Source of the DNA: an uncultured Chloroflexia bacterium
GTDB taxonomy: Bacteria > Chloroflexota > UBA6077 > JACCZL01
Assembly (NCBI GenBank): GCA_963765765.1
Contig: CAVXYC010000005.1
Coordinates: 1 to 35,281, forward strand
Length of the DNA: 35,281 nucleotides
Reading direction: 5' to 3'
Below, in pieces: positions 1,322 through 34,674 of this stretch; the first letter of the stretch is position 1; each line of letters begins with the position of its first letter. The position numbers and the translations under genes are program-made. The notes beneath the pieces are model-generated. The model searched no databases. It was given only the letters and a program-made list of their open reading frames with translations, and was not told the origin of the DNA.

Positions 1322-2508
1322 TTGTTGTCAGTTTCGTTGTCGCGCTACGCGCGGGGCTCACTCCCGCTCTGCTCTGCGCCGCGTTGCTCGTGACCGCCTG
1401 CTCGCCCGCCGCGCCCACCCCTACCGCGGCACAGGCAAAGACCGATTCCGCGGCCACCGCCAAACCAGCCGCTTCTTCCGCTACGGCTTCGGCGGCCGCG
1501 TCACCGGCATCATCGCCGAGCGCGGCGAGCTCTTTTGCCCCGGCGGCAAATCCAGCCGCCGACGTTGCGTCCAAGCCGCTGGCCACGCTGCCAGACTTTC
1601 CCACCAAACCCATCGATATCATCGTGCCGTACCCGCCCGGCGGTGGATTCGATGCGCTTTCGCGGCAGATTGCGAATCCGCTCCAGCGCCAGCTCGGTCA
1701 GCCCGTGGTGGTGAAGAATGTTCCCGGCGGCGGAACGCGGATTGGCGCTCGGCAGTTTCAGCAAACGCAGGCCGATGGTTACACCTTAATTTTACTCGGG
1801 GATACCAATCTCTACGCGAGCACGCTCGTAGAGCCGGCCAAGGGCTTTGACATGCAGAGCTGGGCCTGGGTGGCGGGCATCCGCCACTCTCCGGCTGTTG
1901 TCGTCCGGTAAAGACTCGCCGTTCAAAACGGCGCAGGACCTGGTAAATGCCGCGAAAGCCGGACAGCGAATAAGGCTGCCCAACAATGGCCTGGGCGGCT
2001 ATCTTGGAAGTCAAGTCCTCCTGGCCACCGCTCTGGGTGTGTCGAAAACGCGGTCCACGTGGCGGAGTTGGTGGGCCAGGCGACATGGCGCCATCGCTCA
2101 TCAGGAACGAGACAGAGATGACCTCGAACCCGGTGACGTCATGGATCGGGTTCTTCCAGACGGGCGACTTGCGACCACTCTTCGTCCCTCAGCCCGACCG
2201 TAATGCGCTGATTCCTGATGTGCCGACAGCTCTAGCTGAATCTGCCCAACGTCAATGATCTAGAGGTACTGGGCACCAGCACATATGGATTCGCTGTTGG
2301 GCCCGGCACCCCGCCGGACCGCGTGCAGCTTCTGCAGGAAGCCACCTTGCGTGCGATGCAGGACCCCGAGTTCATAGCCTGGGCGCGCGAGAGCGGCACA
2401 ACTGACGACCTCCTGCCGTTGCCGGGGACGGAGTTCAAGTCGCGCAAAGCGGCCGAGTACGGGACGTATTTCAAATATGTGGACCAGATCAAGAAGGCTG
2501 TGAGCTAA
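1322..2508 (+). CDS. Tripartite tricarboxylate transporter substrate-binding lipoprotein (TctC/Bug family), frameshifted
   Basis: RBS GGAGGT, lipobox LLVTAC, Pro/Ala linker, FPTKPIDIIVPYPPGGGFD, VVVKNVPGGG, and C-terminal GPGTPPDRV..LRAMQDPEF. Confidence 0.88.
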
Positions 2509-3741: not shown

Positions 3742-4987
3742 ATGACTACACCCGTGCAAGGAGCGGATTCAACCAGCGATGATCGGTGCTGAATCCACCC
3801 TCGCCAGTCGCCCCCGTAAGGCCCGAGCAAGTCGCCGCGGTCCGAGTTGATGACGCTACCGCTGAACAGATTTCCACCGCGGTGCGAACCTACGTGGAGT
3901 CGCTCACCTCACTCGAGGCGCAATCACCCGAGTTCGAGCACAAAGTCACAGCGATCAGTCGTATGGGCAATGATGAGATTCGACGCTCGGCCGAGGCATC
4001 AAACCGATTTCTGGATCGACCCACGATCGCGCTCAAGGACGGACCGCTCTCACAGGGCTCTGACGTCTCCACGGCGCTCCTTTCACTCCGTCAGCAAATA
4101 GATAGCCTGGACCCTTCACGTCACCTGGGCAATCGTCGAGGCATCTTCAGTCGCCTGACCATGCGCGACGAAGTGGGCACGTATTTCCGCAAGTACCAGT
4201 CAGCGCAATCGCAGATTGAGGCCATTGTCAATAGCCTGTACCGAGGTCAAGACGAGCTGCTACGCGATAACGCCGCGCTGGAGCAGGAGAAAGCGCATCT
4301 CTGGGAGATGAAGCGCCGCCTGGAACAGTATTCATACATGGCCGGCAAGCTTGACGAGGCGTTAGAGACTGAGGTCCAGCAGATCTCGATCGAAGACCCT
4401 CAGAAAGCACGCGCACTGAAAGAGGATGCCCTCTTCTACGTGCGTCAGAAACGTCAAGACTTACTCACACAGCTCTCGGTCACAGTGCAGGGTTACCTGG
4501 CACTGGACCTCATCCGAAGGAATAACCTGGAGCTGTCAAGGGAGTAGAGCGGGCAACGACAACCACGGTCTCGGCCCTCCGCACAGCGGTCATCGCTGCG
4601 CTCGCCCTGGGAAACCAGCGCCTGGTGCTTGATCAGATCACCGCGCTCAACAGCACGACAGGCAACATCATTCAGTCCACCTCGGAGATGTTGCGACAAC
4701 AATCGGCCGAGATTCAGAATCAGGCCGCCAGCTCTACAGTGGACGTCAAACAGCTGCAGTCAGCCTTCGACAACATCTATGCGACAATTGATGCAATCGA
4801 CACCTTCAAGCTGTCGGCGCTGGACTCAATGAAGACGACGATTGACGCGCTCACCAAGGAGGTGGCGCGTGCCCAGACCCACGTGGAGCGAGCACGAGCA
4901 TCCGAGCTGGCCAGCTCCGGGCCGAAACGATGCAGCAGGAGCTTGTGTTGCCAGCTGAGAAGGGTGCCGCGTGACGGACTACGATAA
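3742..4987 (+). CDS. telA: Toxic anion resistance protein (TelA/KlaA/YaaN family), frameshifted; 3' end approximate
   Basis: RBS GAGGAGG before ATG 3742. Coiled-coil with YFRKYQSAQSQIEAIVNSL..GQDELLRDNAALEQEK, QKRQDLLTQLSV..QGYLALDLIRRNNLEL and LQSAFDNIYATIDAIDTFK. Confidence 0.88.
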
Positions 4988-9552: not shown

Positions 9553-9725
9553 TGCTCCGCCCCCCACACTTCACTGAGCGCGCTCACGGCACGCTTGTAA
9601 TCATTATGTCCCACGGTCCTTGCGGTGGCGACCGATCTGCGTCTGAAGATCTCCATAGACCTCGTTGACAGTCCAGTGCTAGGCTGACGCATATCTCGAC
9701 GTTCATGATTCAAAGGGTGGTAACC

Positions 9726-10773
9726 ATGGCTGCACGGCACCCACGCTCACATCGTTGATCTCCGCGGACTCGCATGTGATGGAGCCGCACGACTCCGGGA
9801 GACGCGATTGCCCGCCGCGCTACGAGACTCCGCACCACGCTTTCCCGCGCCAAAGGTTGGCGAAGGATTCCAGGGGCAGCCCGGTGGGCATGACCCTCAC
9901 GCCCGACTGGATGAGATGAGTGCGGATAACGTGAGCGTTGAGGTGCTCTACCCCACGCTCACGCTATCGCTGTTCGATCTCGACGATGCCAGCCTCCAAG
10001 AGGCCCGTTTCCGCGTATCAACGACTGGCTGATCGACCATGGCGGGTTTCGCCTGAGCGACTCGTCGGTCTAGCGGCCATGTCTGCCTACAACATTGAGC
10101 ATGCCGTGGCGGAGCTCACGCGTTGCGCCCAGGTAGGCCTTAGGGTGCGCTCGTCTGGCAAGCGCCGCATCCGGATTTGCCGTTCTCCGGTCAGCATTAC
10201 GAGCGGCTCTGGCCTGCAGCACAGGACTTGAGCATGCCGATCAGCATGCACATTCTCACGGGACACAGCTACCACAAAGGCGGTCTGATCGCGGCGCAAG
10301 TCAGGTCAAGCGCGGGGGTCTAGCACCATTCCGTGGCGCGGTGAATCTGAAGATCGCGGACACGGCCGGAGCCATCTTTGACCTGGTCTATAGCGGCGCT
10401 CTGGAGCGCTTTCCCGAGCTGAAGATCGTCAGCGTTGAGACGGAGATGGGCTGGTTGCCGTTCTACGAGCAGCAATGGGACTATTACTTCCACCGCTACG
10501 CCGCGGCTAACCCGCCCATCCACCAGCCGCCCAGCACCTATCTACGCCATCAGGTCTACGCAACCTTCTTCAACGACCCTATGGGCGCTCGCCAGCTCAC
10601 CTGGTGGGGTCAGGACACCAGCATGTGGTCCAACGACTTCCCCCACCCCAACACCACCTGGCCCAACTCCCAGGCCGTCATCGCCGGACCTCGGCCACCT
10701 GCCCGCCCATGTGCAGCGCAAAATCCTGTGGGAGAATGCCGCGCGGTTATATGGCTTAAGTCTTAATGATTAG
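9726..10773 (+). CDS. Amidohydrolase_2 family metalloenzyme (decarboxylase/hydratase-like), frameshifted
   Basis: ISADSHVMEP, EVLYPT, PISMHILTG, GALERFPELKIVSVETEMGW, WSNDFPHP, KILWENAARLYGL. Confidence 0.88.
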
Positions 10774-10915: not shown

Positions 10916-11672
10916 ATGATCCCCCTCCTCATAGATTCCCGTTCCCTCCGCGTTCTTGCCACCGAGGCGACCCCGTGACCTGATCTCCAGCCGCTCGCTG
11001 GCAACCGGCGACCGCATCCCCGGTGAAGCAAGAGCTAGTAACACTCCTTGGAACGTCTCGCTCCACGGTGCGCGAAGCGCTCAAGTCGCTCGAGCATGAG
11101 GGCCTGCTTGTCAGTCGTCAGAGGGCTGGGACGTTTTGTCGCGGAACCGGCACCCGTGACCTTCGATCTGACCGACCTGGATTTTCTCCGCCATACCAAT
11201 CAGCTCCTCGGCAGGTCGAGGACTGCGCGAAGAGTTTCCGTACGTCGACATCGGCGAGGGGGTCGCCGATGCGACGACGGCAAAACATCTGGGAGTACAG
11301 ATTCGGTCTCCACCATCGTCCTAGCGAATCCAGTGCGCAAGGTCAATGGCGAGCCTATTGGTCTCTTCAGGTCGGAGATTGCGAATTGTCCGTGGCTCCT
11401 CGAAGAAGCTGCAGGAAGCACAGCCCGCATCGATTTGTGACTTCATCTCGAAAGGTGGGCGGACGCGCAAATTGATCACGCAGTGACAAAAATTCAAGCA
11501 GTGTCCGCCTCGTCCGAGCTCGCGCCCATTATTGGTGCACCCGCACGGTCACCCGGTACTCGAAGTGCAGCAGATTCGACAGGACGGTTCCAACGTACCC
11601 ATCTACCTCACGCGAAGCCATTGGCGGACGGACCTTATTACTTTCCGTCTCACGCGTCAGTTTCAGGCCTAA
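10916..11672 (+). CDS. GntR family regulator (HutC-type, UTRA effector domain), frameshifted
   Basis: GDRIPGE..ELVTLLGTSRSTVREALKSLEHEGLLVSRQ.AGTF(V). UTRA-like RKVNGEPI, IQAVSASSELAPIIG and YLTRSHWRTDLITF. Confidence 0.82.
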
Positions 11673-11691
11673 ATTTAATAATTTACACCTG

Positions 11692-11740
11692 TGATATAAC
11701 GCTGGTAGGTTAGGGCGCAACTTGTCAGACATCTGATAAG
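11692..11740 (+). promoter_or_regulatory. Extended -10 promoter and palindromic operator upstream of the TctC/PrpD operon
   Basis: AT-rich patch with TGaTATAAC (11692-11700). Inverted repeat CTTGTCAGA-ca-TCTGATAAG (11721-11740) contains the GntR-like TGTC-A-GACA. Confidence 0.55.
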
Positions 11741-11763
11741 TGCGGAAATTGAAGCGCCGTGCG

Positions 11764-13071
11764 ATGGCGGACATTGGGGCATTACGACAGCGGGTAAGTC
11801 GAGACCGACAACGTCCGCCCGCTAACTCACGAGCCCGGCGAGACGCCCTGCTTCTCCTGGTTGTCACAATTGCCGGGGTCTTGTCGCTTGCAGCGTGCAG
11901 TTCACCCGCACCAACTGCAACCATCTGACCCTACAAGCAAGTGGCCACGGCCGGTTCATCGCCCGCCGCGGCGGCAAGCCCTGCGCGCTCCGCCGCCGCT
12001 CCATCCGCCTCGCCGGCGGCGAGCCCGGGGACATCCCCACCGGTCGGGCTTGGAGTCGACTCGCAGCCGACGAGCAGAGTGGACCAGTCGCTCGCCAACA
12101 TGTGGCAGGGGAAGATGCTCACCATCGTTGCAGGTGAGGCGCCCGGCAGTGCGAACGACACGACCGCGCGCATCATGGCACGGCATCTCGGTCGACATTT
12201 GCCCGGTCAGCCAACGATCATCGTCCAAAACATGCCCGGCGGGTCGCACCGCATTGCCATGAACTTTCTCTACACCGCCAAGTCAGACGGTCTCACCATC
12301 GGCATCGTCGATCTCAACGTCCCCTTCGACCAGCTCTCCGGTGAGGGCGCTGAGCAGGGCGTTCGTTACGACGTGAACAAGATGCACTGGCTGGGGCAGC
12401 CCCACGGTGGTGAATCAGCTTCTTGCGGCGCACCAACGCGCTGGCGCCACGCCAGCCGATCTCAGCTCGCTCGCAACACGAGAAGTAAAGATGGCCAACA
12501 CGTCCGCTGGTGATTCCCACACGTGATTCAGGCAGTACTGAATGGCGTTTTCGGTTGGAAGCTCAAGCCGATCTTTGGCTACCAGGGCACCCAGAACCGG
12601 CAGCTTGGCGTGATGCGGGGTGAAGTGGATGGCATGGTGAGCACCTGGGACAGCTTCCGCCGAACCATGGGCGATGAATTCAAAGCTAAGAACATGCTCC
12701 CCATCCTGGCCATCGGCGACCTGGGAAACGATCCGCTCCTTGACGGCATCTCGACGCTAGACAAGCTGGTGGCAACCAAGACCGCTGATGACAAGGCCCT
12801 GGCCGATCTGGCCGTTCGGCGCTATGACTGGGGTCGACGAATGGTAGCGCCACCCGACACCCCAGCAAACGTGGTGGCTACGATCCGTGCGGCTGCTTAC
12901 GCCTGCACCTTCGCCGACCCGAGTTTCCTGGCGGACGCTCAACAGATCGAGCTTGAGGTGATTCCGGTTTCCGGTGATCGGGTCCAGGAGCTTATGACGA
13001 GCTTCATGAAGACACCAAAACCCGCGCCGGACCGCATGGAGCCGCCCATCGATGCGGAGGCAGGCAATTGA
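11764..13071 (+). CDS. TctC/Bug-family substrate-binding lipoprotein, frameshifted
   Basis: Lipobox LSLAAC, AASPA linker, WQGKMLTIVAGEAPGSANDTTARIMARHLGRHLPGQPTIIVQNMPGG, GYQG..RGEVDG, GRRMVAPPDTP. Confidence 0.88.
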
Positions 13072-13074
13072 CCG

Positions 13075-14482
13075 TTGAGCACGCGCAATATGACTGCCAC
13101 AGAGCAGCTCGCTGAGTATGTTGAAAATTTAGGGTACCAGCATCTTCCTGCATACATGGTATTGAATATGGCCAAGTTTAGCATTCGCGACATCGTAAGT
13201 GTGGCGCTGTTTGCAAGCGATCTCGACTGGACCAACCACGGCGGCGGCTATGGCTCGCGAAGCTGAATGCGCCCCTGTGGCCAGCGTCTGGGGCCACGGT
13301 TGGAAGACCTCTGCTCCTTACGCAGCGCTGGTCAACGGTACTGCCGCTCACGGCATTGAGATGGACGACCGGAACCATAACCTGGAGATTCACAATGGTG
13401 CTGCCACCGTTTCCGCAGCCATCGCCATGGCCGAGCGGTGCGGCAGAAGCGGGCGCGACATCATCCTTGGCGTGGTCTGTGGTTATCAGGTCGCCTTCCG
13501 CGTAGCGCGGGCAACTCGAGGGCGGCATCTGGCCGCGCTTCTATTCCGATGGAATCAGGAGCTTCTGGGGCGCCGCCGCTGCGGCGGCCAGGCTGCTCGA
13601 GCTCAGATAAAAGGGCATGGTCTATACCTTCGGTATCACCGTAAATATGGCTTCCGGCCCGATGGAAGACACGCTCGATCCATTTGGCACGATGGTCAAA
13701 CCACTCCAAGGCGGCGGATGGCAGGGTTATTCCGGCGTCATGGCTGCGCTCCTGGCGCAACAAGGGCTCACGGCGCCGCGCGCCATGATTGATGGCGAGG
13801 ATGGGTTCTGCATTTATTTTTGCACCGTCAAGGAGCCCGATCTCGAGCTTCTCACGAAAGACCTCGGGGAAGACTTCGAGATGCTCCACTGGGAGACAAA
13901 GCCTTACGCCACCCGCCGCGCTTACCACAGTGCCATCGACGCAGTGAAAGAGCTGCGCGCGGGAGCACGGCGTTCAAGCGGAGCAGGTTGAGCGCATCGT
14001 CATGGGTGCCTCCAGCCGATTCGCCGGCAATTCGAACGTCGGGAAGCCTGATTCGGTGATGGCGGCGCAGTACGCCTGGCCTTCGCTACTTCCGCCGCCT
14101 TTCGCCACGATCTAGCCAACCCCGCCATCTGGAACGAGCACACTCTTCGACGCGGCACGCCCGCATCTCGGACACGTGGAATCGAGCGTCGGTGGAAGTC
14201 GACCCCGAGATCGACGCGATCTACAAGCAGACCGGAACCAACGCGGGTATCCGTGTGACGGCTCAGCTCACGTCCGGTCAGATCATCAGCGTGTGGCGAA
14301 AACACGCCAAAGGCACACCGGGTAATCCGATGACACGAGCGGACCTGGACTCCAAGTTCACGCTCCTTGCAGCTCACGCGCTCGGAGATGAAGGTGCCGC
14401 CCGACTCGGATCCACTCTGGACCATCTCGAGGACGCGCCCGCGCCATTTGATCTCACCACCCTGACCACGCGTTCCGCGTAA
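13075..14482 (+). CDS. MmgE/PrpD family protein (paralog 1), frameshifted
   Basis: TEQLAEYVENLGYQHLP, APYAALVNGTAAHGIEMDD, IHNGA, GYQVAFRV, WETKPYA, KGTPGNPMTRADLDSKF. Confidence 0.9.
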
Positions 14483-14509
14483 TCGCGACGCGGCTGACAA
14501 GGACAAACT

Positions 14510-15928
14510 ATGAGAGAAACAGAGCAGCTCGTTACCTGGGTTGATCAACTCACCTACGCGGACCTGCCTGAGCCGGTGGGGTCCACATGGCCAAGGCATG
14601 CATTCGCGATGCAGTGGGTGTTGGCTTGTTCGCGAGCAGCCTTGAATGGACCGAATATGGTGGCCGCGATGGCTCGCGAGGGCCGACTGTGCGCCAGTTG
14701 CTAGCGTCTGGGACTGGGATTGGAAATCCTCGGCGCCATACGCCGCGATGATCAATGGCACCGGTGCCCACGGAATTGAGATGGATGATCCCAACGACAA
14801 CCTGGAGATTCACAACGGCGCTGCGACCGTTCCGCGCTGGCCTCGGCACTTGCCTAGAAATCGGGTAAGAGTGGCCAGGATCGGACCGTCGCGGTCGTGT
14901 GCGGTTTCGAGGTGGCGTTCAGGCTGGCTCGCGCCACGCAGGCCCGGATCGAGAACTTTTACTGGAGCAGCGTCCGCAGCGTGTTTGGATCGGCAGCGGC
15001 TTCAGGCAAGGTCATCGGGCTCGACCATAAGGGCTTGCTGAACACGCTTGGTATCACGGGCAGCCTGGCTTCGGGCCTGCACGAGCACACCCACACCAAT
15101 TCCACGCGGGACCATGGTGAAACGACTCCAGGGGAAAGGATGGCCGGCGCAATCAGGAGCGACCGCAGCGCTTCTTGCCGAGAAGGGCATGACGGCGCCG
15201 TCCACGATCCTGGAGGGCAAACTGGGTGTCTGCCAATCCTTCTTGCACCAAAGGTGAGCCCTATATCCAAGCGCTCGTTCGAGGGCGGAGCGAGGGATTC
15301 AAGACCTCCAGCACACCGGGAGACCAAACCGGACGAAACAATGGCCAGCGCGGCCGGCATCCTTGACGCTCTTTCACAGGCACGTGAAGAAGCCGTGGTG
15401 CCTCGCGAGACGAGGTGACGCGCATCTCAGTTGGCTGCTCGACAAAGAGCATGACAAACGCACGCCGCCCGTGGCCGCAATCGGTCCTGTCGGCGCAGGC
15501 GAATACGCCATTTGTCGTGGCCGCCAGCTTCTACTACGAGATGGGCTACCCGGGCATCTGGAGCGAAGGAATTCCTGTCCGACGAGCGTATCCCAAGGCT
15601 CGCGGAGCGCTTCGAGACATTCATCGACAATGAGCTGGAGCGTCAGGCCGCCGAGACCAATGTCATCGGTGCGGGCAAGGTCGCGCTGACGCTGGCCGAC
15701 GGGCGCACAATCAAGGGTGTGGGTACCACATCCATCGGGAACGCCTGAAAACCCACTCACGCAGTGGGAGCTCACCCTGGAAAATTTGGGAACCCTTGAA
15801 CAGCTCGCGCACTGCCGGATGCACAGATCGATGAGCTGCTGCGCTACATCAATACGCTCGACACGCACCGGGCCAGCTCGATTTGGCAGCGTCGCGGACA
15901 TGAGCGGGTTCAGATCACTGGAGTCTAA
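14510..15928 (+). CDS. MmgE/PrpD family protein (paralog 2), frameshifted; 3' end approximate
   Basis: MRETEQLVTWVDQLTYADLPE, APYAAMINGTGAHGIEMDD, GFEVAFRLA, GTMVKRLQGKGWPAQSG, GTPENPLT. Confidence 0.88.
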
Positions 15929-15955
15929 CCATTCAGCGACGGAGATCGCTACCAT

Positions 15956-17229
15956 ATGACCGATCGGAACACACAGCGCACATCATTGCGGGACCGCGCA
16001 CAGCAAAGTGCGGGCGGGATTCTGCTGATCGCATGCGTGGCTCTGGCCGCGTGCTCGAGTCGGCCGACGCCATCACCCACTACCAAGCCGTCGGCCCCGG
16101 TCTGCTCCGGCAAATCCTGGCAGGGCGCGGTCGCCGCATCTCCGGGTGGGTGGCGGAAGCCCGCTGCTTCACCGGCAGCCTCTCCAGCCGCCTCCCTCGC
16201 GGCGCAGGTGCCCGTCGTGCCGAAGCCGTCTGCGCCACCGGATCCGGCACTGGCCAGTGTGTGGTCGGGCAAGGTGTTCACCATGGTCATCAGCGAGGCG
16301 CCCTGGGCGGCGCCGCTGATGCTACGGCGCGGCTGGTGGGCACCCATCTGGTGAAGCACCTTCCCGGGCACCCCTACGTACGTTCCGCAGAACATTCCCG
16401 TGCCAATAGCCGTATCGCGGCCAACTCCCTGTACACAGCTAAAGGGGACGGATTGACCGTCGGGATGGTCAACTCCGGGGACCCTGCATTCCAGCTCGCT
16501 GGTGAAGGGCCCGAACAGGGGGTGCGCTACGACGTCACCAAGTTCCAGTGGATCGGGAGTCCCACGGTTCAGACGCAGGCGCTCGTGGTCCATCAGAAGA
16601 TCGGCGTCACAGTGCAGACGCTCGATCAGCCTGACCATAACTCGCGGCACTCGCTGGGCATCGCCGGGCGTAGACAACCCAGATGGTGTCGGTGCTGCTC
16701 AATCATGCGCTGGGCTGGAAACTCAAGACCGTCTTTGGTTACCAGGGCCTCCCCGGGCGCATCCTGGGCATCGATCCCGGCGAGGTGGACGGACTTGTGG
16801 CCACCTGGGACGGCGTACCATTGATCAAGGGCGACGACCTGCGCAACAAGACACTCTGGCCGCTTGTGATCGCCGGTAGAGATAAGGACGACCCGCTCCT
16901 GGCAGGCGTACCCAACGCAGAACGGCTTTTTGCCAACACCACACCCGAGACGCGAGAAATGCTGGCACTGGTGACACGGCCGTATGAATGGGCGCGACCG
17001 TTTCTGGCGCCTCCCGAAACGCCGGCCAACATCGTCGCCGGTTTGCGCGCCGCGTTCGACGCGACCATGGCAGATCCTGACTTCCAGGCCGAGGCCAGGC
17101 GCCTTCAGATCGACGTGCTGCCCGTCTCGGGCGAGCGCATGCAGACCGGGCATGGCCGAGTATCTGAAATCGTCGCGGGAGACCGTCGATAAACTCCAGG
17201 CGCTGGTCGACGCCGAGGCGCCTCAGTGA
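15956..17229 (+). CDS. TctC/Bug-family substrate-binding lipoprotein, frameshifted
   Basis: Lipobox VALAAC, PAASPAASPAAS linker, GGAADATARLVGTHLVKHLPGHP, GVRYDVTKFQWIGS, ARPFLAPPETP..LRAAFDATMADPDF. Confidence 0.88.
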
Positions 17230-17255
17230 TGTCCCGGCTCGACCTGGAGCTGTCG

Positions 17256-18637
17256 ATGACTATGAAGGAGACATCTCGGCTCGCGTCCTTCCTCGCAGAT
17301 CTTCACTACGAGGATCTGCCGCCGGACGTCGTCGAGCTTGCCAAAGCTGGCGATTCGAGACGCTATCGGCGTGGGCCTGTTCAGCACCCGCCTGGAGTGG
17401 TCGCAGATCGTCGCGGACTTTGCTCACGATATGGCGGGCGAAGGGCCGTGCCACGGTCTGGGGGCGACCGTGGCGGATGACGGCTCCGTACGCGGCCCTG
17501 GTGAACGCGACGGCCACGCACGGAATCGAGATGGACGATCGCAGCCACAACCTGCAGATCCACAACGGCGCGACCACTGTGCCCGCGGCCGTCTGCGCTC
17601 TACCGAGCACGCAGTGGCCGCTCGGACGCGACCTGATCCTGGCAGTGGTGTGCGGTTACGAAGCGGCCTACCGCGTGGCCCGAGCATCGCAGCGGCGCAT
17701 CGAGCGTTTCTACTGGGTGAGCAACCGGAACATCTGGGGTGCGTCGGCCGCAGCGGCGAAGGCGCTGAAACTGAGCCAGGGCGAATTCGTGTGTGCGTTC
17801 GGAATCGCTGGCGGCATGGCGTCGGGTCTGTGGGAATTCACCCACGATCAGGCGGGCATGATGTCCAAGCGACTCCAGGGCGGCGGCTGGCCTGCGTACT
17901 CCGGAGTAACGGCGGCGCTTCTCGCACAGCGCGGATTTACCGGACCAGCCAGCATTCTGGAAGGTGAGAGCGGATTCTTACAGTCATTTTGCACCGCGGG
18001 AGAACCCGACACTGAGGCACTGGTGCGGAATCTGGGTGAAGATTTCGAGATGCGCCACTGGGAGACCAAGGCCTACGCCACGCGCGGCGTCTTCAGCACG
18101 CCTGTGGAATGCGTCTATCGTTTGGTAGCGGAGCATGGTGTTGAGCCGCGGAGCATCAGACGGCTCGCGCTGGAGTGTCGTGAAGGGCTGGTCCAGCACA
18201 CGACTACCGGTCGGCCCCCGTCGCTTACGGCCGCTCAGTACAACGTGCCCTTCGTCGTAGCGGCAGCCTTCTACTACGATCTCCAGGATCCGTCCATCTG
18301 GGACGAATCGATCCTGCAAGACGAGCGCGTCCTGGCGCTCTCCGAGCTTGTGGAAGTACAGCCAGATCCACAGGCATCCGACGAGTACGGTCCGCTGGGC
18401 TCACGCCTTACGGCGACGCTGGCGGATGGCCGAACCGTGAGCGTGCACGTGCGACACGACAAAGGGTCACCGGAAAACCCCATGACGGCGCATGACGTAC
18501 ATGCGAAGTTCGATGTGTTGAGTCGGCACGCACTGCCCCGCGCCCAGGCGGATGCTCTAAGTCTAATCATCGACAAGCTCGATCGCGTCGACACACCGCT
18601 GGATTTGAGCAATCTGGCGGGACGGTCGACTCGCTGA
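17256..18637 (+). CDS. MmgE/PrpD family protein (paralog 3), frameshifted near the N-terminus
   Basis: ETSRLASFLADLHYEDLPPDVV, APYAALVNATATHGIEMDD, KRLQGGGWPAYSG, GFTGPASILEG, KGSPENPMT. Confidence 0.92.
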
Positions 18638-18652
18638 AGGAGACCGAATAAC

Positions 18653-20040
18653 ATGAGAGAGACCCAGCAGCTCGCGGAGTACGTGTCTTCGCTGCGATAC
18701 GAGGATTTACCGTCCGAGGTGGTGATCACCGCCAAGAACGTCATCCGGGACATGGTGGGCGTCGGGTTATTTGCCAGCCGACTCCCCTGGACTGAGAAAG
18801 TGACCGACTTCGCCCAGGCCGCGGGCGGCCGAGGCAAGAGCACGGTCTGGGGTCGGGAGTGGCAGCTGACGGCGCCGTACGCCGCATTAGCCAACGGCAC
18901 AGCCGCCCACGGCATCGAGATGGATGAGCGGATCCACGGCCAGGACCTGCACAACGGCTCGTCGAGCGTCGCGGCCGGCATTGCCACTGCCGAGTATGCC
19001 GAGGGCAACGGGCCGGGACCTGATTCTGGCAATCGCCTGCGGTTATGAGATCGCGTCCCGCGTCAGTCGAGCATCCGATCGGCAAGCGCGACAGTTCTAT
19101 CCCAGCAGTCTGTGGAACATCCTGGGATGCACCACGGCCGTGGGCCTGCTCCTTGGCCTGGATGCCGTAGGACTGCAGAACGCGCTGGGCATCGCCGGCG
19201 GCATGGCCTGCGGCCTCACCGAATACAATCACGACCCGCACGGGACCATGGTCAAGCGGCTCCAGGGTGGCGGCTGGCCCGCCCAGGCGGGCGTGACGGC
19301 CGCTATGCTGGCACAACGGGGTTTCACCGGCCCGATCGAGCATCATCGAGGGTGAGAACGGCATGCTGCGTTCGTTCTGCACCACCGGCGAGCCAATCAT
19401 GGAGGCACTCACCGATCGGCTCGGCGAAACCTGGGAGATGCCGCTCTGGGAGACCAAGTGGTTCGCCGCCTGGGGCGGATCGCACAGCGGAATCGAGGCC
19501 GTCCTCACACTGCGCGAAGAGCACGACCTGACACCCGAGCAGATCGACTCGATCGAAGTTGGCATCAGCGAGAAGATCTATCCTGAGACGCAGAGGCCGG
19601 CGCCGCGCAGTATCCTAGCTGCCCAGCACAATCTGCCATTTATCCTCGGCGCCGCATTCTATTACGACCTGCACGATCCACGAGTGTGGCAGGACAGCAT
19701 TCTGGACGACGAACGAGTGCTAGCCATCGCCGCCCGTGTCAAAGCACATGTGGATCAGGAGGTCAACGATATCGTCCTCGCCACCCGCGATCTCGGTGGC
19801 ACCAAGATGACCATCGATCTATCCGACGGTCGCCAGGTGAGCACCTACGTGCGCTACACCAAGGGAACGCTGGACAATCCACTCTCACCTGCCGAGCTTG
19901 ATGATAAGTTCCGCATGATGAGCGGCGCCGCCCTCGGCCCCCAGCAAGTTGATGCTCTCAGCCACCTGCTGACGAATCTCGAGCGTACTGACCGGCCGCT
20001 GGACATGAGCCTGGCGCTGCGTCAGGGAGCGCTCGCATAG
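18653..20040 (+). CDS. MmgE/PrpD family protein (paralog 4), frameshifted
   Basis: RBS AAGGAG. MRETQQLAEYVSSLRYEDLP, APYAALANGTAAHGIEMDE, KRLQGGGWPAQAG, WETKWFA, KGTLDNPLSPAELDDKF. Confidence 0.92.
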
Positions 20041-25760: not shown

Positions 25761-26153
25761 TCAGGCGTGCCAGTCGGGATGATCGTCCCATTGACTGATC
25801 ACGCCGTTGGCGGCTTCCAGAGCATGGTTCGTCTTGGGAAAGCCGATGTACGGCGCGCACTGAACGATCGTCTCGATGATCTCTTCGCGGGTTGCACCGC
25901 GGTTGAGCGCGCCGCGCGTGTGAATGGCCACCTCGCCGGGCAGGTCCTGCGCCGCGGTGGCAGCAATCACGATCAGCTCGCGCAGCTTCAGGTCCAGGCC
26001 AGGGCGAGCCCAGATGGTGCCGAAACAGTATTCCAGGATACTTTCAGCATGCCCGGGATCTATCTCATTGAGAGCGCGCCAGCGCTCTTCGCCGTTCTCA
26101 CCAAAGGCACTCCGTCGGATCTCCTGGCCACGTTGCCGTCGATCGTCACTCAT
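25761..26153 (-). CDS. Carboxymuconolactone decarboxylase family protein (PcaC-like)
   Basis: Intact. FGTIWARPGLDLKLRELIVIA..HTRGALNRGATREEIIE..YIGFP; no CxxC. Confidence 0.9.
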   Translation of the reverse strand: MSDDRRQRGQEIRRSAFGENGEERWRALNEIDPGHAESILEYCFGTIWARPGLDLKLRELIVIAATAAQDLPGEVAIHTRGALNRGATREEIIETIVQCAPYIGFPKTNHALEAANGVISQWDDHPDWHA

Positions 26154-26177
26154 CGCGAGCCTCCCTCAACTTGGGCG

Positions 26178-27038
26178 TTATCGGAACAGCGGATGCCCGA
26201 TGCCTGGCGTCTTCACACGCAGGCTGTAGATGGACGTCCGAGCAGTGAAGTAGATCGTTCTCAGATCTGGCCCGCCAAAGACCAGATTCGCGGGGACCTC
26301 CGGCGTGCGGATAATACCGAGCTTCTCGCCAGCGGGATTGAATACCCACGTGCCACCCGCCCCGGTGCAAAAGATATTGCCAGCAACATCCACTTTCATA
26401 CCGTCCTGTACGCCGTCCGTCTCGTCCGACGACATATCGGCAAAGATCCGCCGCCGTACTACCGTCCGATCATCGGCGAGCTCGAAGACGTGGATGTATT
26501 GACTGAATCGCGTGTTGGAGACGTACAGCAGCTTCTCGTCCGGAGAAAACGCTAGTCCGTTGGGGTACTCGCAGTTGGCCACCAACGATACATCGCCATC
26601 CGAAGCGATCCGATACACGCCGGAATAGAGCAACTCCTTTTGATCCAGCGGTACGCGTAAACCGGGATCAGTGAAATAGAGGCTGCCATCCGAGGCGCAG
26701 ATAACGTCATTCGGGCGACTGAGTCGTCCGCCTTCAAATCGGTCGACCAGTGTCTCAGCGTCGGAGCCGGGAGTCCAGCGAGCAATTCGTCGACTCCCAC
26801 CCTCGCAGACGATGATCCGACCCTGGAGATCCAGCGTCGTGCCGTTGCCGTCCCCGGTGTTCTCTCGAATCAGCTCCGGCGAGCCGCCTGGAACGAGCTT
26901 GTAGTACTTCCCCACCCAAATGTCTGAAAAAGTCAGATATCCGTCCCTATGCCAGATAGGCCCCTCGACGAACTCAAAGCCCGTCGCGACCCGCTCAGGC
27001 TCGGTCGTTTCTAGAATCGCGCTGAGGTCTTCGTTCAT
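26178..27038 (-). CDS. SMP-30/gluconolactonase/LRE family protein
   Basis: Intact. GFEFVEGPIW, RPNDV, LYFTDP, PNGLAFSPDEKLLYV, DGMKVDVAGN, ANLVFGGPD. Confidence 0.95.
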   Translation of the reverse strand: MNEDLSAILETTEPERVATGFEFVEGPIWHRDGYLTFSDIWVGKYYKLVPGGSPELIRENTGDGNGTTLDLQGRIIVCEGGSRRIARWTPGSDAETLVDRFEGGRLSRPNDVICASDGSLYFTDPGLRVPLDQKELLYSGVYRIASDGDVSLVANCEYPNGLAFSPDEKLLYVSNTRFSQYIHVFELADDRTVVRRRIFADMSSDETDGVQDGMKVDVAGNIFCTGAGGTWVFNPAGEKLGIIRTPEVPANLVFGGPDLRTIYFTARTSIYSLRVKTPGIGHPLFR

Positions 27039-27070
27039 GCTGGCCTACCTTTCAGCTGTGCATCTCACGT

Positions 27071-27168
27071 CCTGGGACCGCGGGCGTCTCGCCCGTTGGA
27101 TCAGACCGCGCCAACTACAGGGATTTGGGAGATCTAGCCGGGACGGGCGAAACGCTCGCGGTCCCAGG
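27071..27168. repeat. REP-like inverted repeat (26-bp arms) inside an operon gap
   Basis: CCTGGGACCGCGGGCGTCTCGCCCGT versus ACGGGCGAAACGCTCGCGGTCCCAGG (2 mismatches). Confidence 0.85.
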
Positions 27169-27175
27169 GGCTGTC

Positions 27176-28261
27176 CTATCCATTGGGCGTGATCACCGCC
27201 ACCATGGCTTCCAGCGTCTCACTGGCACGGAATGCCTCGTTCGCCTGGTCCAGCCCGTATTTGTGGGACACCATGCGCTCGACCGGGTACGGCGTCATGG
27301 TCTGCATGGCTTCAGGCAACGGATAAATGACTCCGGGTCGGCTCCTGACACGCCGGTTACCCGCAGCCCCTTCTGCACGATATGAGCTGGATTGATGGGC
27401 ACCGCGCCAAAGTCCGTGGCTGAGCCAACCAACAGATACCGGCCACGGAGCGGACCATCTCCAGCCCCTCCTGAACGACGGACTGGTCCCGGCGCACTCG
27501 ATGACCACGTCCGCACCGCGGCCGTTGGTGATATCCTGAATGCGCTGCACACGCGCTTCCGGCGTGGGAAAATCCTGCAGATCCAGCGTCTCGCTGGCGC
27601 CCAGCTCAAGCGCCATCTCGAGCCGATGTGACGGCGCACCAATCATGATGACTCGGCCGGCGCCCGCGGTCTTCGCCTGCACCAGGCCTGCCATGCCCAT
27701 GGGTCCGGAGCCTTGAACGACGACGGTGTCTGCCAGGCCAATGCCGCCCATGCGCTGAATGCCGCGCCAGTAGGTGGGGTTGCCGGTCACGCTGATGAGT
27801 GCCCGCTCCGACGTCACGTCGTCCGGAATCTTCAGAATCCATCGACGTGTGGGCTCAAGGTAGACGTACTGGCTGAAGCCTCCGGTAATGTGCGGCGGCT
27901 CGGTGAACGGCCGCATGCCGTACATCATGCGCTCTTCACAGTTCTCAGCCATGGCGCAGCTTCGGCACTTACCGCACGGGGCCGAGCGGAAGAGAACGCG
28001 GTCTCCCTCCCGTAGCGGTTGACCGAGTACGTCCTTATCCAGTCCCTGTCCCGCCATCGCGAGCGTAGCCACGTTCTCGTGGCCGAAGATCATAGGGTGC
28101 GGGGTGGTATCGATGTGCAGGTTGTGTACGTCCGTCCCGCAGACCGCGGCCATGGACATCTTCACGATGGCACCGCCCGGCGGCGGATCGGGAACCGGGA
28201 ACTCCTGCACTTCCAGCGGCTTACCAGCCCCCACAAAGACCGCGGCCTTCGATGTCGTCAC
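27176..28261 (-). CDS. Zinc-dependent medium-chain alcohol dehydrogenase, internal compensating frameshifts
   Basis: Catalytic Zn VCGTDVH and FGHE; structural Zn CGKCRSC..C; Rossmann VVVQGSGPMG; GRGADVVIECAG. RBS GGAGGT before GTG. Confidence 0.92.
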   Translation of the reverse strand: MTTSKAAVFVGAGKPLEVQEFPVPDPPPGGAIVKMSMAAVCGTDVHNLHIDTTPHPMIFGHENVATLAMAGQGLDKDVLGQPLREGDRVLFRSAPCGKCRSCAMAENCEERMMYGMRPFTEPPHITGGFSQYVYLEPTRRWILKIPDDVTSERALISVTGNPTYWRGIQRMGGIGLADTVVVQGSGPMGMAGLVQAKTAGAGRVIMIGAPSHRLEMALELGASETLDLQDFPTPEARVQRIQDITNGRGADVVIECAGTSPSFRRGWRWSAPWPVSVGWLSHGLWRGAHQSSSYRAEGAAGNRRVRSRPGVIYPLPEAMQTMTPYPVERMVSHKYGLDQANEAFRASETLEAMVAVITPNG

Positions 28262-28486
28262 AATCCCACCTCCCGATCTGCGCGTCTCTGCATTGTTCCG
28301 GCCCATCGCCCGCCGTCAACGGGGGCATGAAAGGCAACGGAGCCGCATCCGAATCGTTGAGGGCGGCACTCGCGGGTGCTATCCTCGCGGCTGGTTCCCT
28401 GCACTTCGCGTATTCATCCCAGCGAACGCGACGCACGAAGCGCCGCCGGGAGGTACCGTAGTCTGGACTCCACGTTCGTCTCTCCG

Positions 28487-32778: not shown

Positions 32779-33360
32779 GTGAACCGGTTCACGATATCGG
32801 AGGATGGTCTGCTCTCCGATCAGTCTGTGCAAGACGTGGCGTCCATGTACCAACAATTGGCGCCGTGGGCGGACGGTCTGACCATCGAGGCCAATGCGAT
32901 GGTAGTACGTGCCTATACGGCCATGATCGCCCGAAACGCTCCCTGCTGGGCTGAATTCGGCCTTTCGGACGGCCGATTTACGCTATTGCGCTGGCTCTAC
33001 CAGGCCGAAAACCACCGTCTCTCGATGATTGAGCTTGCCCGCCGGATGAACGTAAGCCCCGCCAATGTGACGAAGCTGGCCAAAGGGCTTGAGCGCGATG
33101 GCCTGATCAAGCGCGTGAACCACCCACAGGATCGCCGACTTGTTATCGCAGCGCTAACCCCGGAAGGGCGATCGCGATTTGAAGCTGTGCTTCCTTCCAT
33201 GCGGAGACGCATCGAAGCCGCGTGGGCTGGTATTTCCAATCAAGAGAAGCGCGTGCTTATCCACATCCTGTCCAAGCTTCAGATGACGATGCAGGCTGAC
33301 GTGGACGTCGCCGCGTTGGTCCAGCGGGAACCCCAGAACGCCTCCGATTCGGAACGCTGA
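32779..33360 (+). CDS. MarR family transcriptional regulator
   Basis: GLSDGRFTLLRWL..LSMIELARRMNVSPANVTKLAKGLERDGLIKRVNHPQDRRLVIAALTPEG. Confidence 0.93.
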   Translation: MNRFTISEDGLLSDQSVQDVASMYQQLAPWADGLTIEANAMVVRAYTAMIARNAPCWAEFGLSDGRFTLLRWLYQAENHRLSMIELARRMNVSPANVTKLAKGLERDGLIKRVNHPQDRRLVIAALTPEGRSRFEAVLPSMRRRIEAAWAGISNQEKRVLIHILSKLQMTMQADVDVAALVQREPQNASDSER

Positions 33361-33532: not shown

Positions 33533-34583
33533 TTACAGCCCGAAGAATCTCCTGGGGTTCGCCTCCAGGATCTGCTCCTGATCAGCCTCCGACAAACCAG
33601 AGCGGCGTAGGTCCTCGATAGCCGACGGCCAGAGGCCGTTGGGGTCGCCGTGATAGAAGTCGCTGCCCAGCATGAATTGATGGTCGGGCACCAGCCGCAC
33701 CATGTCGGCGAGGGATGGCTCTTTGGTGTGCACCGTGATGTAGAAGCGGTCGATGTACTCGCTGGGCATCCGCTCGAGGTGCGCGATCAGTCGCGAGGCC
33801 TGGCCGCGCTCCAGATGGTCCTGGTAGTAAATGTCCAGCCGTTTGACAAGGTACGGCACCCAGCCCACGCCGGCCTTGAACATGCCGAATTTCAGCGTGG
33901 AAAGCGATCCAGAGCGCCGCTGAAAATCAGGTGCGCCATGGTCAGCATGTAGGTGAACGAAAAGCCCAGCGCGGAGCCCAGGAAACCGTACTCGGCGCCG
34001 AATCGATCGGCGCCAACCAGCGCGGTGTTCAGCGGCTGAGCATCGGAAGTACGCGCCGCTCCGTGCGCCAGCACGGGCACGTCTAGCTCGGCCACCTTCG
34101 CCCAGAACGGGTCCAGCTCACGGCTGCCCAGGTGGAGATCGCCGACCGCACCGTTACTTTTACCGACCGCAAGCCGAGCGTATTGACGGCCCGCTCCAGC
34201 TCCTTGATCGCGCCGTCGATGTCGGCCAGATAAACCCAGGCCACACCGATGTAGCGATCGTGCCCCTTGATCGCCGCGGCGGTGGCGTCGTTGTAGGCGC
34301 GGGCTAGCGAGTTGCCGATCTCCGGATCGTCCTCATAGATCAGGGGTCGGTTCTCCGGAATGAGCACCTGCCGATCGAATCCGTGGCGGTCCATCACCGC
34401 CGTGCGCTTGCTCAGGTCGTAGCCGTCCTCCGGGATGCTGATCAGCGGTGCGCCCTGCCGCAGCACGTTGATTCGTGTGCCGTCGCGCTGATATTGAATC
34501 CAGTCTCGCGCTGCCGGGCTGTCCACGTGGTCTAGCCACTCCAGCGGCAGATAATGCGTGTCGGCATCGATGTACAGGGTCAT
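33533..34583 (-). CDS. Amidohydrolase_2 family metalloenzyme, frameshifted
   Basis: YIDADTHY, LARAYND, AIKELERAV, VPVLAHG, LIFSGALDRFP, AGVGWVP, MLGSDFYHGD, ILEANPRRFFGL. Confidence 0.9.
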
Positions 34584-34652
34584 GACGTCGTCTCCCCCTT
34601 TGCGCAACCTTGAGCGCAAGCGCCACTCAGAATAGGTTAAGGTTCTCAACCG

Positions 34653-34674
34653 TTGTAACGCATTGCGTTACAAT
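34653..34674 (+). promoter_or_regulatory. Perfect palindromic operator overlapping the -10 box of the TA operon
   Basis: TTGTAACGCA-t-TGCGTTACAA; TACAAT at 34669-34674. Confidence 0.75.

Follow-up and report, generated by a model that had tools for sequence, protein, structure and literature searches.

The window analysed here, a whole contig of 35,281 nt from an uncultured Chloroflexota bacterium, carries between 10.98 and 20.04 kb a co-directional, tightly packed array: a GntR regulator gene, a gene for a binding protein (SBP), two PrpD-like genes, a second SBP gene and two further PrpD-like genes (Table 1). As the breaks in these genes resemble assembly noise more than biology, the most sensible reading of the array is an ordinary acid-utilisation locus, as yet uncharacterised. 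We lean towards a carboxylate-utilisation operon comprising a HutC-type GntR regulator, two TctC/Bug lipoproteins and four old MmgE/PrpD paralogues, whose breaks are most likely small-insertion errors of sequencing or assembly.

Layout of the locus and its binding proteins

In a Pfam scan of the window (273 ORFs, each at least 70 aa), 10 stop-to-stop ORFs within 13199-20037 matched pieces of MmgE_PrpD_N and/or MmgE_PrpD_C. Frameshift-aware alignment rebuilt both SBP genes and, at full length, all four PrpD-like genes. The order SBP, PrpD, PrpD, SBP, PrpD, PrpD and the common orientation described in the initial annotation are confirmed. Its naming of the parts is also right: the regulator is of the GntR type, the binding proteins are of the TctC type and the enzymes belong to the MmgE/PrpD family. 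The intergenic gaps are short (~16-30 nt). None of the seven genes (regulator and six cassette genes) has an intact open frame, and the six cassette genes together contain ~27-29 frameshifts and 3-4 in-frame stops. The initial annotation had listed the frameshifts for correction. In fact, they dominate the contig as a whole and decide whether anything in the locus is functional.

Table 1. Features of the locus and its surroundings, with frame breaks and the evidence for each assignment.
Feature	Position	Strand	Frame breaks	Evidence and remarks
Third, more canonical TctC gene	1558..2451	+	at least 3 frameshifts	PF03401 E 1.3e-10, ORF 1261-1908; frameshift-aware alignment
Amidohydrolase_2-family gene	9724..10773	+	several frames	PF04909 E 6.7e-8, ORF 10137-10763 only
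GntR/HutC-type regulator	10984..11672	+	at least 3 frames	HTH 10984-11140; UTRA C-terminal remnant ~11517-11636
Imperfect palindrome CTTGTCAGACATCTGATAAG, 20 nt	11721..11740			8/10 pairs; 24 nt upstream of SBP1 ATG
SBP1, TctC-family lipoprotein	11764..13071	+	2 compensating frameshifts near 12394 and 12515; in-frame TGA at 11926	frameshift-aware alignment; signal peptide ending LSLAAC
PrpD1, MmgE/PrpD family	13090..14482	+	5 frameshifts (13237, 13517, 13962, 14071, 14148); TAA at 13608	Pfam and frameshift-aware alignment; 90.5% identical to P0010 (87,608-nt contig)
PrpD2, MmgE/PrpD family	14510..15903	+	11-13 frameshifts; TAG at 14855	Pfam and frameshift-aware alignment; 89.9% identical to intact P0002 (456 aa), 23 nt longer than its CDS
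SBP2, TctC-family lipoprotein	15956..17229	+	3 frameshifts, near 16298, 16672, 17142	frameshift-aware alignment; signal peptide ending VALAAC
PrpD3, MmgE/PrpD family	17256..18637	+	4 frameshifts (17343, 17443, 17600, 17623), all within the first 370 nt; remainder a single 405-codon frame	Pfam and alignment; 95.9% identical to intact P0129 (458 aa)
PrpD4, MmgE/PrpD family	18653..20040	+	2 frameshifts (19001; 19335, a 1-nt insertion, ccg-a-tcg); 19335 common to P0029 (87,608-nt contig)	Pfam and frameshift-aware alignment

The regulator has a clear GntR HTH (PF00392, E 2.7e-11, 43.4 bits versus a cut-off of 27). Of the proposed UTRA domain, only a sub-threshold remnant was detected (PF07702, E 0.0016, 18.7 bits, cut-off 23.8), encoded in another frame than the HTH. 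An operator had been postulated ahead of the cassette. Its sole candidate is the palindrome listed in Table 1, and this is no better than chance, since 20-mers with 8/10 palindromic pairs occur 27 times across the window versus 21.8 times in shuffles. The Amidohydrolase_2-family gene, whose N-terminal pieces lie in frames other than that of the ORF matched by Pfam, is located directly upstream in the same orientation and possibly belongs to the same operon.

Both SBPs have lipoprotein signal peptides and are 43.1% identical to each other. The motifs GEGxEQGVRYD and GWKLKxxFGYQG are present in their read-through alignments and absent from the third TctC gene, which corroborates the private motifs ascribed to this pair. 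Their designation as TctC proteins is based on relatives and a profile search. By Pfam on the window itself, none of four SBP fragments reaches PF03401 at E<=0.001, and two of the four match at E 0.02-0.04. SBP1 is 42.6% identical to a Mycobacterium SBP (L002:6369-7529) that scores 29 bits on this profile. Among seven relatives scanned, three lie above the 27-bit cut-off (L002:6369, L003 and L004; 29.0-30.8 bits), one just below it (26.1) and three far below or unmatched. A profile of the SBP subfamily (A2) searched against the PDB matched 11 sequences, all of them TTT SBPs (E 8e-13 to 3e-6), among them TphC (8e-13), BugE, BugD, AdpC, MatC and Bug27. Judged from these matches, SBP1 and SBP2 are probably divergent TctC-family lipoproteins (TctC/Bug, tripartite tricarboxylate transporter).

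Origin of the frame breaks

Contig-wide, breaks affect at least 17 gene regions, and only ~6 are whole. Even the DeaD helicase core is frameshifted, at position 117. The DeaD fragment also supports the taxon, its match to a protein of a Chloroflexota MAG having 94% identity. Compared to near-identical orthologues, 23 frameshifting indels were scored: +1 nt in 14 cases, +2 nt in 7 and -1 nt in 2. This bias of 21 insertions versus 2 deletions (binomial p 7e-5) is accompanied by three codon insertions and no codon deletion. Amino-acid mismatches amount to 17-23% within 4 residues of the breaks versus 2.8-7.5% elsewhere. Intact orthologues are present on JGI and Logan contigs, namely P0129 (458 aa), P0126 (364 aa), a MarR (193/193 residues identical) and the DeaD protein P0145, and P0146 on an NCBI MAG contig is full length, too. 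A comparison with the sister contig (87,608 nt) revealed mostly private lesions: MarR is whole in the window and broken there, PrpD2 broken in the window and whole there. A break directly after the motif GFTGP recurs in three contigs and affects two different paralogues, which points to a context-dependent error. Contig-wide breakage, the 21:2 ratio of insertions to deletions and the intact orthologues together argue for assembly noise, which we moderately favour over true pseudogenes. If the breaks are errors, the cassette genes are probably intact in the living organism.

Alternatively, the cassette might be a decaying relic in a Chloroflexota lineage that is shedding genes. The regulator, both SBPs and the four enzymes would then be true pseudogenes, and the loss of the TctA/TctB permease gene, which relatives retain between SBP and enzyme, would belong to the same dismantling. 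We consider this possible, but clearly the less likely explanation. It would account for multiple lesions in every cassette gene, the real-looking in-frame stops of three kinds (TGA 11926, TAA 13608, TAG 14855) and the absence of a TctA remnant from the window. The breaks are also patchy (23 events in 6.6 kb, chi-square p 0.001), and five ORFs totalling 4.05 kb between them are break-free (P ~4e-7 at the cassette rate). Such a pattern is expected if selection kept some genes; uneven coverage or polishing could yield the same. One lesion, the insertion at 19335, is common to the sister contig and lies outside any homopolymer. Furthermore, PrpD1 and PrpD2 carry substitutions at family-invariant residues (IEMDDP, QGKGW, KPLQ) while the orthologue P0002 is intact, and their divergence from the orthologues outside the breaks is still 6.6-7.5% of residues versus 2.8% for PrpD3. 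Against decay speaks the polarity of the indels: bacterial pseudogenes are described as deletion-biased in parts of PMC6054270, and both the 21:2 ratio and the 3:0 codon indels are the reverse. GC3 is 0.71-0.84 in broken and 0.67-0.75 in intact genes, so that broken genes show no lowering and no AT drift. PrpD2 has 13 breaks, yet only 46 of 455 residues (~10%) differ from its intact orthologue. A broken DeaD core, the predominance of broken regions over the contig and intact copies in relatives with 96-100% identity likewise speak against decay. To our knowledge, Chloroflexota are not a phylum known for genome decay; a literature search yielded nothing on point. Deletion bias, composition drift and lesions common to relatives, by which a pseudogene array is recognised, do not characterise the locus, apart from the one lesion at 19335.

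Enzyme family and paralogue relations

All four enzymes match the Pfam N- and C-terminal domains (PF03972 and PF19305). Frame 17168-18634 of PrpD3 reaches 133.5 and 89.4 bits on them (cut-off 32.1), and the fragments of PrpD1, PrpD2 and PrpD4 cover successive segments of the two profiles. The read-through alignments contain the motifs HGIEMD, HNG, K.LQG.GW and ETK reported before. In the tree, the four enzymes fall into one clade (99/99) that comprises 31 of the 49 rows and includes proteins from Mycobacterium and Acrocarpospora. By tree and equivalog scores, they constitute one small, uncharacterised MmgE/PrpD clade outside every characterised clade, in line with their earlier description as uncharacterised.

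The best solved relatives of the orthologue P0129 are cis-aconitate decarboxylase (CAD, IRG1/ACOD1; PDB 6R6U, 6R6T, 7BR9; E 3.5e-23) and iminodisuccinate epimerase (PDB 2HP0/2HP3; E 9e-20). By Pfam, they share the two-domain architecture, and motifs of the HxxE/DxDD...H, K and ETK type are retained. The relation is, however, distant (85 bits over ~440 residues), and the eukaryotic or plasmid-type contexts of these enzymes are unrelated to the locus. Parts of PMC6789909 name Asp93, His103, His159, Lys207 and Lys272 as conserved carboxylate-coordinating residues of hCAD; parts of PMC12290011 name His88, Glu91, His102, His152, Lys202 and Lys266 for PaMsi. In the pairwise sequence alignment of P0129 with CAD, on which the residue mapping is based, the Asp93 position is kept as Glu (HGIEMDD), Lys207 is kept (KRLQGGGW) and the IHNG histidine is one position off His103. 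We read the ETK lysine as the likely equivalent of hCAD Lys272. By contrast, the His159 position is Tyr (RFYW) in all four paralogues, and Thr97 is replaced by Arg. [quoted passage not shown] According to parts of PMC12290011, it is a cofactor-free MmgE/PrpD-family enzyme with a free C4-dicarboxylate substrate and conserved carboxylate-coordinating residues, and a TctC-type SBP gene adjoins the C. necator itaconate/methylsuccinate cluster. In the PrpD-like clade, its His152 (corresponding to hCAD His159) is Tyr. The CoA-transferase, hydratase, lyase and acyl-CoA dehydrogenase genes mentioned there for this cluster have no counterpart among the 273 ORFs of the window by Pfam.

Two other views of the enzymes have to be weighed. 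E. coli PrpD (b0334) belongs to the same Pfam family. The enzymes might be ordinary PrpD proteins, with a role as 2-methylcitrate dehydratases in propionate catabolism, as some homologues are labelled '2-methylcitrate dehydratase PrpD' by JGI. This is extremely improbable. The tested orthologues and clade relatives reach only 31-63 bits on NF042438 (cut-off 950), and just one tested relative (L003:9821-11197) matches NF006943, with 22.9 bits (cut-off 575), whereas the control E. coli PrpD scored 929 bits on TIGR02330 and 925 on NF006943. In the tree, the latter lies outside the clade on a 6.25-unit branch. With PrpB and PrpC of E. coli plus a PrpF as queries, tblastn found none of the three genes in the window (best E 0.08-4.7), and none of the 273 ORFs matches a Pfam family of citrate synthase, PEP mutase, aconitase or PrpF, so that the reported lack of methylcitrate-cycle genes is borne out. 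The dehydratase identity was rejected, as the equivalog models were failed by >10-fold in score.

The initial annotation instead postulated that an SBP-PrpD-PrpD unit was duplicated and diverged, with each pair of enzymes possibly assembling into a heteromer dedicated to one binding protein. We regard this as improbable. Gene order indeed repeats with short gaps, orthologues of all four enzymes occur together again on the 87,608-nt contig, and two clade members each are present on a 20,379-nt and an 8,345-nt contig. However, the enzymes are deep paralogues (43-52% identity) that form an unresolved polytomy inside the clade, and the closest pair is PrpD3-PrpD4 (52%), not 1-3 or 2-4. AU tests neither support nor reject the pairings expected from a duplicated unit (1+3, p 0.23; 2+4, p 0.082); 3+4 and all four together gave p 0.18 and p 0.19. 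Neither expected pairing appears in the ML tree, and each costs 8.4-9.0 log-likelihood units. In addition, four related loci pair one SBP with one enzyme and a TctA or TctAB gene, and characterised members are homodimers (CAD; parts of PMC6789909).

Related loci and proposed function

An uptake system had been proposed, but the window does not provide its membrane component: five TctA/TctAB queries from related loci found no TctA or TctB in it (tblastn, best E 0.24). In five of six related loci, a TctA gene adjoins the enzyme gene, and it is fused to TctB in three (Pfam). In four of them, the SBP gene is followed by TctA and then by a single PrpD-like gene, the order in L005 being judged by ORF sizes alone. 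Loci of this TTT-linked type, none of them characterised, occur in Actinomycetota: Mycobacterium sp. NAZ190054 (L004), Mycobacterium sp. PS03-16 (L005), a Mycobacterium MAG (L002/L006) and Acrocarpospora catenulata (L003). They share with the window the enzyme clade (46-50% identity), the divergent TctC-type SBP subfamily (37-43% identity, motifs GEG..GVR.D and FGY.G) and a GntR-family regulator nearby. In contrast to the window, which has no permease gene and two enzymes per SBP, a TctA gene of ~700 aa is located between the SBP gene and one enzyme gene; Pfam detects a TctB domain fused to it in L003, but none in L004. Their regulators are of the FCD type, that of the window is probably HutC/UTRA-type.

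For the favoured carboxylate-utilisation operon, the following mechanism can be envisaged. The regulator would repress the operon until an acid or its derivative binds to it. The two surface-anchored SBPs may capture two related di- or tricarboxylates and pass them to TctA/TctB membrane proteins presumably encoded elsewhere in the genome. In the cytoplasm, the PrpD-like enzymes would act on a common C4 1,4-dicarboxylate moiety via an enolate intermediate. The reaction may be an isomerisation/epimerisation, a dehydration or a decarboxylation, in keeping with all family members characterised so far. A more speculative and rather unlikely extension is that, if the genes are intact, the clade catalyses a reaction new to the MmgE/PrpD family. 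The tandem paralogues would then be obligate heteromeric pairs or perform two consecutive steps (e.g. epimerase and dehydratase/decarboxylase) on two related environmental polycarboxylates. Such a clade would be marked by the Tyr replacing the otherwise conserved His159/His152 and by its tie to a divergent lipoprotein TctC subfamily of monoderm Chloroflexota and Actinomycetota.

Reading frames of the cassette and its surroundings

The cassette is a genuine cluster of genes from known families; its reading frames are unreliable, and it is uncharacterised. The window is a complete contig with a GC content of about 0.61, and between 9.8 and 20.7 kb the ORF listing is nearly devoid of long open frames. 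A Pfam scan of all 273 stop-to-stop ORFs of at least 70 aa in the window located pieces of MmgE_PrpD_N and/or MmgE_PrpD_C in ten ORFs of the stretch 13199-20037. Using a purpose-written frameshift-aware protein-to-DNA alignment, six co-directional genes were rebuilt: two for TctC-type binding proteins (SBP1, SBP2) and four for MmgE/PrpD-like enzymes (PrpD1 to PrpD4). This bears out the order SBP-PrpD-PrpD-SBP-PrpD-PrpD proposed in the initial annotation; the spacing between enzyme genes is only about 16-30 nt. The motifs quoted there as private to the SBPs or shared by the enzymes are present in the read-through alignments, and the third TctC gene of the window lacks the SBP motifs, as claimed. 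Likewise, the statement that methylcitrate-cycle genes are missing agrees with the absence of citrate synthase, PEP mutase/isocitrate lyase, aconitase and PrpF from the Pfam scan of the 273 ORFs. The proposed operator did not hold up: an inverted-repeat search of the window yielded no convincing candidate, and the sole operator-like element is a palindrome at 11721-11740 with 8/10 pairs; 20-mers of this kind number 27 in the window, this one included, versus 21.8 in shuffles. Neither tRNAs nor Rfam families were detected when the window was scanned for them.

Features of the window and state of their reading frames
Feature	Position	Strand	State or source
DeaD-type RNA helicase	1-900 (contig start)		broken at 117 in helicase C-terminal domain
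First TctC gene	~1558-2451		in pieces
Multi-pass membrane protein, 364 aa	2569-3663	+	intact; directly after first TctC gene
TelA (toxic anion resistance)	3783-4984	+	two overlapping frames, single shift near 4530
Amidohydro_2 gene	9724-10773		in pieces
GntR HTH	10984-11140		Pfam
SBP1	11764-13071		frameshift-aware alignment
PrpD1	13090-14482		frameshift-aware alignment
PrpD2	14510-15903		frameshift-aware alignment
SBP2	15956-17229		frameshift-aware alignment
PrpD3	17256-18637		frameshift-aware alignment
PrpD4	18653-20040		frameshift-aware alignment
CMD-SGL-ADH block	25761-28306	-	three consecutive whole genes in otherwise broken contig
MarR gene	32779-33360		whole
Amidohydro_2 gene	33536-34667		in pieces
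NTP-transferase/GlmU-like gene			three pieces
Transglutaminase-like gene			in pieces
SBP_bac_5 gene			in pieces
FAD-oxidoreductase/cNMP-binding region			in pieces
NMT1-like SBP			perhaps whole

Compared with distant homologues, PrpD1 contains 5 frameshifts and a TAA at 13608, PrpD2 11 frameshifts and 2 stops, PrpD3 4, PrpD4 2 and SBP2 3 frameshifts. SBP1 carries compensating frameshifts at 12394 and 12515, and an in-frame TGA (11926) separates its lipoprotein signal peptide from the mature domain. The picture is unchanged when near-identical orthologues serve as reference; PrpD2 then shows 13 frameshifts and a TAG at 14855. In the GntR regulator, the HTH, the middle part and a UTRA remnant (PF07702, E 0.0016, 18.7 bits, below the cut-off of 23.8) lie in three different frames. 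Recoding or programmed frameshifting is ruled out by +1, +2 and -1 breaks in unrelated contexts and by in-frame stops of all three kinds.

Many genes outside the cassette are fragmented, too, and whole-looking ORFs are scarce. The DeaD gene has a second break in its Arg/Gly-rich tail; its orthologues on other contigs (94-95% identical) are full length with 579-610 aa. The two Amidohydro_2-family genes are each spread over at least three frames, and the first immediately precedes the GntR gene in the same orientation. For the 364-aa membrane protein no Pfam or NCBIfam match was found; its counterparts from three further contigs (P0126-P0128) share 97-98% identity with it. The CMD-SGL-ADH block comprises carboxymuconolactone-decarboxylase-family, SMP-30/gluconolactonase-like and zinc alcohol dehydrogenase genes. 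An exact look-up of these three ORFs and the NMT1-like ORF in the protein collection gave no hit; the chosen start codons may be wrong. Another gluconolactonase-like gene stands behind the PrpD-like gene of L006, one of the related loci considered below.

Origin of the frame breaks

At 94% identity, the DeaD fragment matches a Chloroflexota MAG protein, and the other named matches listed are almost all from Chloroflexota/Chloroflexi MAGs. A Mycobacterium-like actinobacterium undergoing genome decay, suggested by the lipoboxes, the GC content and the best PrpD matches, was rejected as host on the strength of the DeaD match. All four enzymes have orthologues on an 87,608-nt sister contig (NCBI/ENA): P0010 for PrpD1 (90.5%), P0002 for PrpD2 (89.9%, intact with 456 aa), P0131 for PrpD3 and P0029 for PrpD4 (95.3%); MarR and DeaD are encoded there as well. 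An intact 458-aa PrpD3 orthologue, P0129 (95.9% identical), is found on a 5,608-nt JGI contig. Among the copies compared, most of the intact ones come from JGI or Logan contigs, namely P0129, P0126 (356/364 identical to the membrane protein), MarR P0122 (193/193) and DeaD P0145; intact DeaD P0146 is from a 9,450-nt NCBI MAG contig. The contigs with broken copies (35,281, 87,608 and 8,345 nt) stem from NCBI/ENA or ENA, and P0124 (34,293-nt contig) is merely shorter at its N-terminus. This division by source counts for noise. A search for a close full-length SBP1 orthologue returned only 12 distant proteins with 28-36% identity.

The breaks are probably noise rather than decay. Polarised against near-identical orthologues, the 23 frameshifting indels comprise 14 of +1, 7 of +2 and 2 of -1, an insertion excess with a binomial p of 7e-5. 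Codon indels in the same comparison are 3 insertions and no deletion, and PrpD2 is as long as the intact orthologous CDS plus 23 nt. Since bacterial genomes and pseudogenes are described as deletion-biased (PMC6054270), this polarity counts for noise. If the cassette genes were instead true pseudogenes, which we consider the less probable reading, 21 insertions versus 2 deletions would run opposite to that bias, and no drop in GC3 is seen: broken genes have 0.71-0.84, whole genes 0.67-0.75. In favour of decay, the breaks are patchily distributed (chi-square p 0.001 across the seven regions evaluated), whole ORFs totalling 4.05 kb would remain unbroken with P ~4e-7 at the cassette rate, and each kind of in-frame stop occurs. 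In addition, the non-homopolymer insertion at 19335 (ccg-a-tcg) is common to the window and the sister contig, and PrpD1 and PrpD2 have lost family-invariant residues; outside the vicinity of breaks, 6.6-7.5% of their residues still differ from the orthologues.

Several observations at the breaks themselves point back to noise. Amino-acid mismatches within 4 residues of breaks amount to 17-23% versus 2.8-7.5% elsewhere (permutation p 0.04, below 5e-5 and 1e-4), which is what a locally garbled consensus would look like. The 13 lesions of PrpD2, at only about 10% divergence from the intact orthologue, are hard to reach via natural decay. The genes affected differ between the window and the sister contig: of the two, only the sister contig has a shifted MarR, and only the window has a broken PrpD2. 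Immediately behind the GFTGP motif, a break is seen in PrpD4 of the window (19335), in P0029 and in P0028, a PrpD3-like gene on a third contig. Its recurrence on three contigs and in two paralogues points to either a context-dependent sequencing error or a mutational hot spot. Such gene-breaking indels are known from long-read assemblies (PMC8574707, PMC12007338). Homopolymer-type errors as the sole cause are ruled out, as the longest runs near the 23 breaks are 2-4 nt and equal to background. A literature search on pseudogenes or frameshifts in Chloroflexota MAGs found nothing specific. The reading frames of this contig are untrustworthy, and claims of pseudogenes, gene loss or private motifs need read-level confirmation here.

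The enzyme clade and its binding proteins

The MmgE/PrpD family is large: of 1.84 billion representatives, 16,624 match at E<=0.001 and 1,973 at E<=1e-30, and only about ten have at least 41% identity to P0129. According to PMC12290011, roughly one in five prokaryotic species has a homologue, and the majority of these proteins are uncharacterised; functions have been established for 2-methylcitrate dehydratase, the cis-aconitate decarboxylase (CAD) of fungi and animals, iminodisuccinate (IDS) epimerase and, as of 2025, (S)-(R)-methylsuccinate isomerase. The substrates of all these enzymes share a C4 1,4-dicarboxylate moiety on which they act, and the mechanism proposed for them involves an enolate (PMC12290011). 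In a 49-row ML tree, the four paralogues fall into one clade of 31 rows (support 99/99) together with Mycobacterium spp., Acrocarpospora catenulata and contig-only proteins, and E. coli PrpD is placed far outside. An assignment as 2-methylcitrate dehydratase PrpD was rejected: the NCBIfam equivalogs were missed widely (31-63 versus 950 bits), and the E. coli PrpD control scored 929 bits on TIGR02330. The cluster is not a methylcitrate-cycle locus. The nearest solved relative is cis-aconitate decarboxylase (E 3.5e-23), followed by IDS epimerase (E 9e-20). Judged by alignment to hCAD, the clade appears to retain motifs with equivalents of Asp93 (as Glu), His103, Lys207 and Lys272, whereas a Tyr would take the place of His159 (residues from PMC6789909). 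A compact clade (about ten clusters at 50% identity in the 1.84 billion representatives) with a putative Tyr at a conserved active-site His is a modest lead, and the intact orthologues P0002 and P0129 are available for assay.

SBP1 and SBP2 are probably divergent TctC proteins. None of four window fragments matched Pfam TctC at E<=0.001, 3 of 7 scanned relatives score 29.0-30.8 bits, above the cut-off of 27, and the 11 PDB sequences matched by an SBP-subfamily profile are all binding proteins of tripartite tricarboxylate transporters (TTT). Both SBPs have lipoprotein signal peptides, which fits a host from the Chloroflexota, a monoderm phylum.

Duplication and related loci

The four enzymes share 43-52% pairwise identity, highest for PrpD3-PrpD4, and SBP1 and SBP2 share 43%. 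These values do not exceed the identities to proteins from other phyla. The four paralogues are old, and a duplication of the whole unit is possible. In the ML tree they form a polytomy without any of the tested groupings. The pairing 1-3/2-4 suggested earlier is thus absent from the ML tree but unrejected by AU tests (PrpD1+PrpD3 p 0.23, PrpD2+PrpD4 p 0.082); PrpD3+PrpD4 (p 0.18) and all four together (p 0.19) are likewise above 0.05. Nothing shows a new type of system here. TctC genes commonly adjoin catabolic clusters and MmgE/PrpD homologues are common, so the significance of the arrangement as it stands is little.

One scan of species-representative genomes yielded six related loci (L001-L006; L002 and L004-L006 from Mycobacterium, L003 from Acrocarpospora). 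In L002, L003 and L004, a TctC-like SBP gene is followed by a TctA-family gene (~700 aa; putative in the first L002 module) and a single PrpD-like gene. A fused TctB domain was detected by Pfam in L003, the second L002 module and one L006 gene, but not in L004. A GntR(FCD) regulator is nearby in L004 and, putatively, in L002. Judged by its ORFs, which match those of L004 in size and position, L005 would have the same layout. In L006, SBP-TctAB is divergent from the enzyme, and in L001 an ABC transporter replaces the TTT genes. The clade is consistently tied to TTT transport; a literature search on PrpD/MmgE with this transporter type found nothing on this clade. SBP and PrpD-like genes are also linked in relatives, but with one enzyme and TctA instead of two enzymes per SBP without permease. 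In the window, five TctA/TctB queries found no trace of these genes (best E 0.24). Unlike in the relatives, TctA/TctB are thus missing, and the permease-less tandem-enzyme layout is specific to this lineage of Chloroflexota. It may recur within the lineage, as suggested by the four orthologues of the sister contig, known there from proteins alone.

The second module of L002 (13486-20778) is inverted and pairs a very divergent PrpD-like gene with genes for PrpF and an FAD-binding_2 flavoprotein, which hints at aconitate or tricarballylate-type chemistry in this branch.
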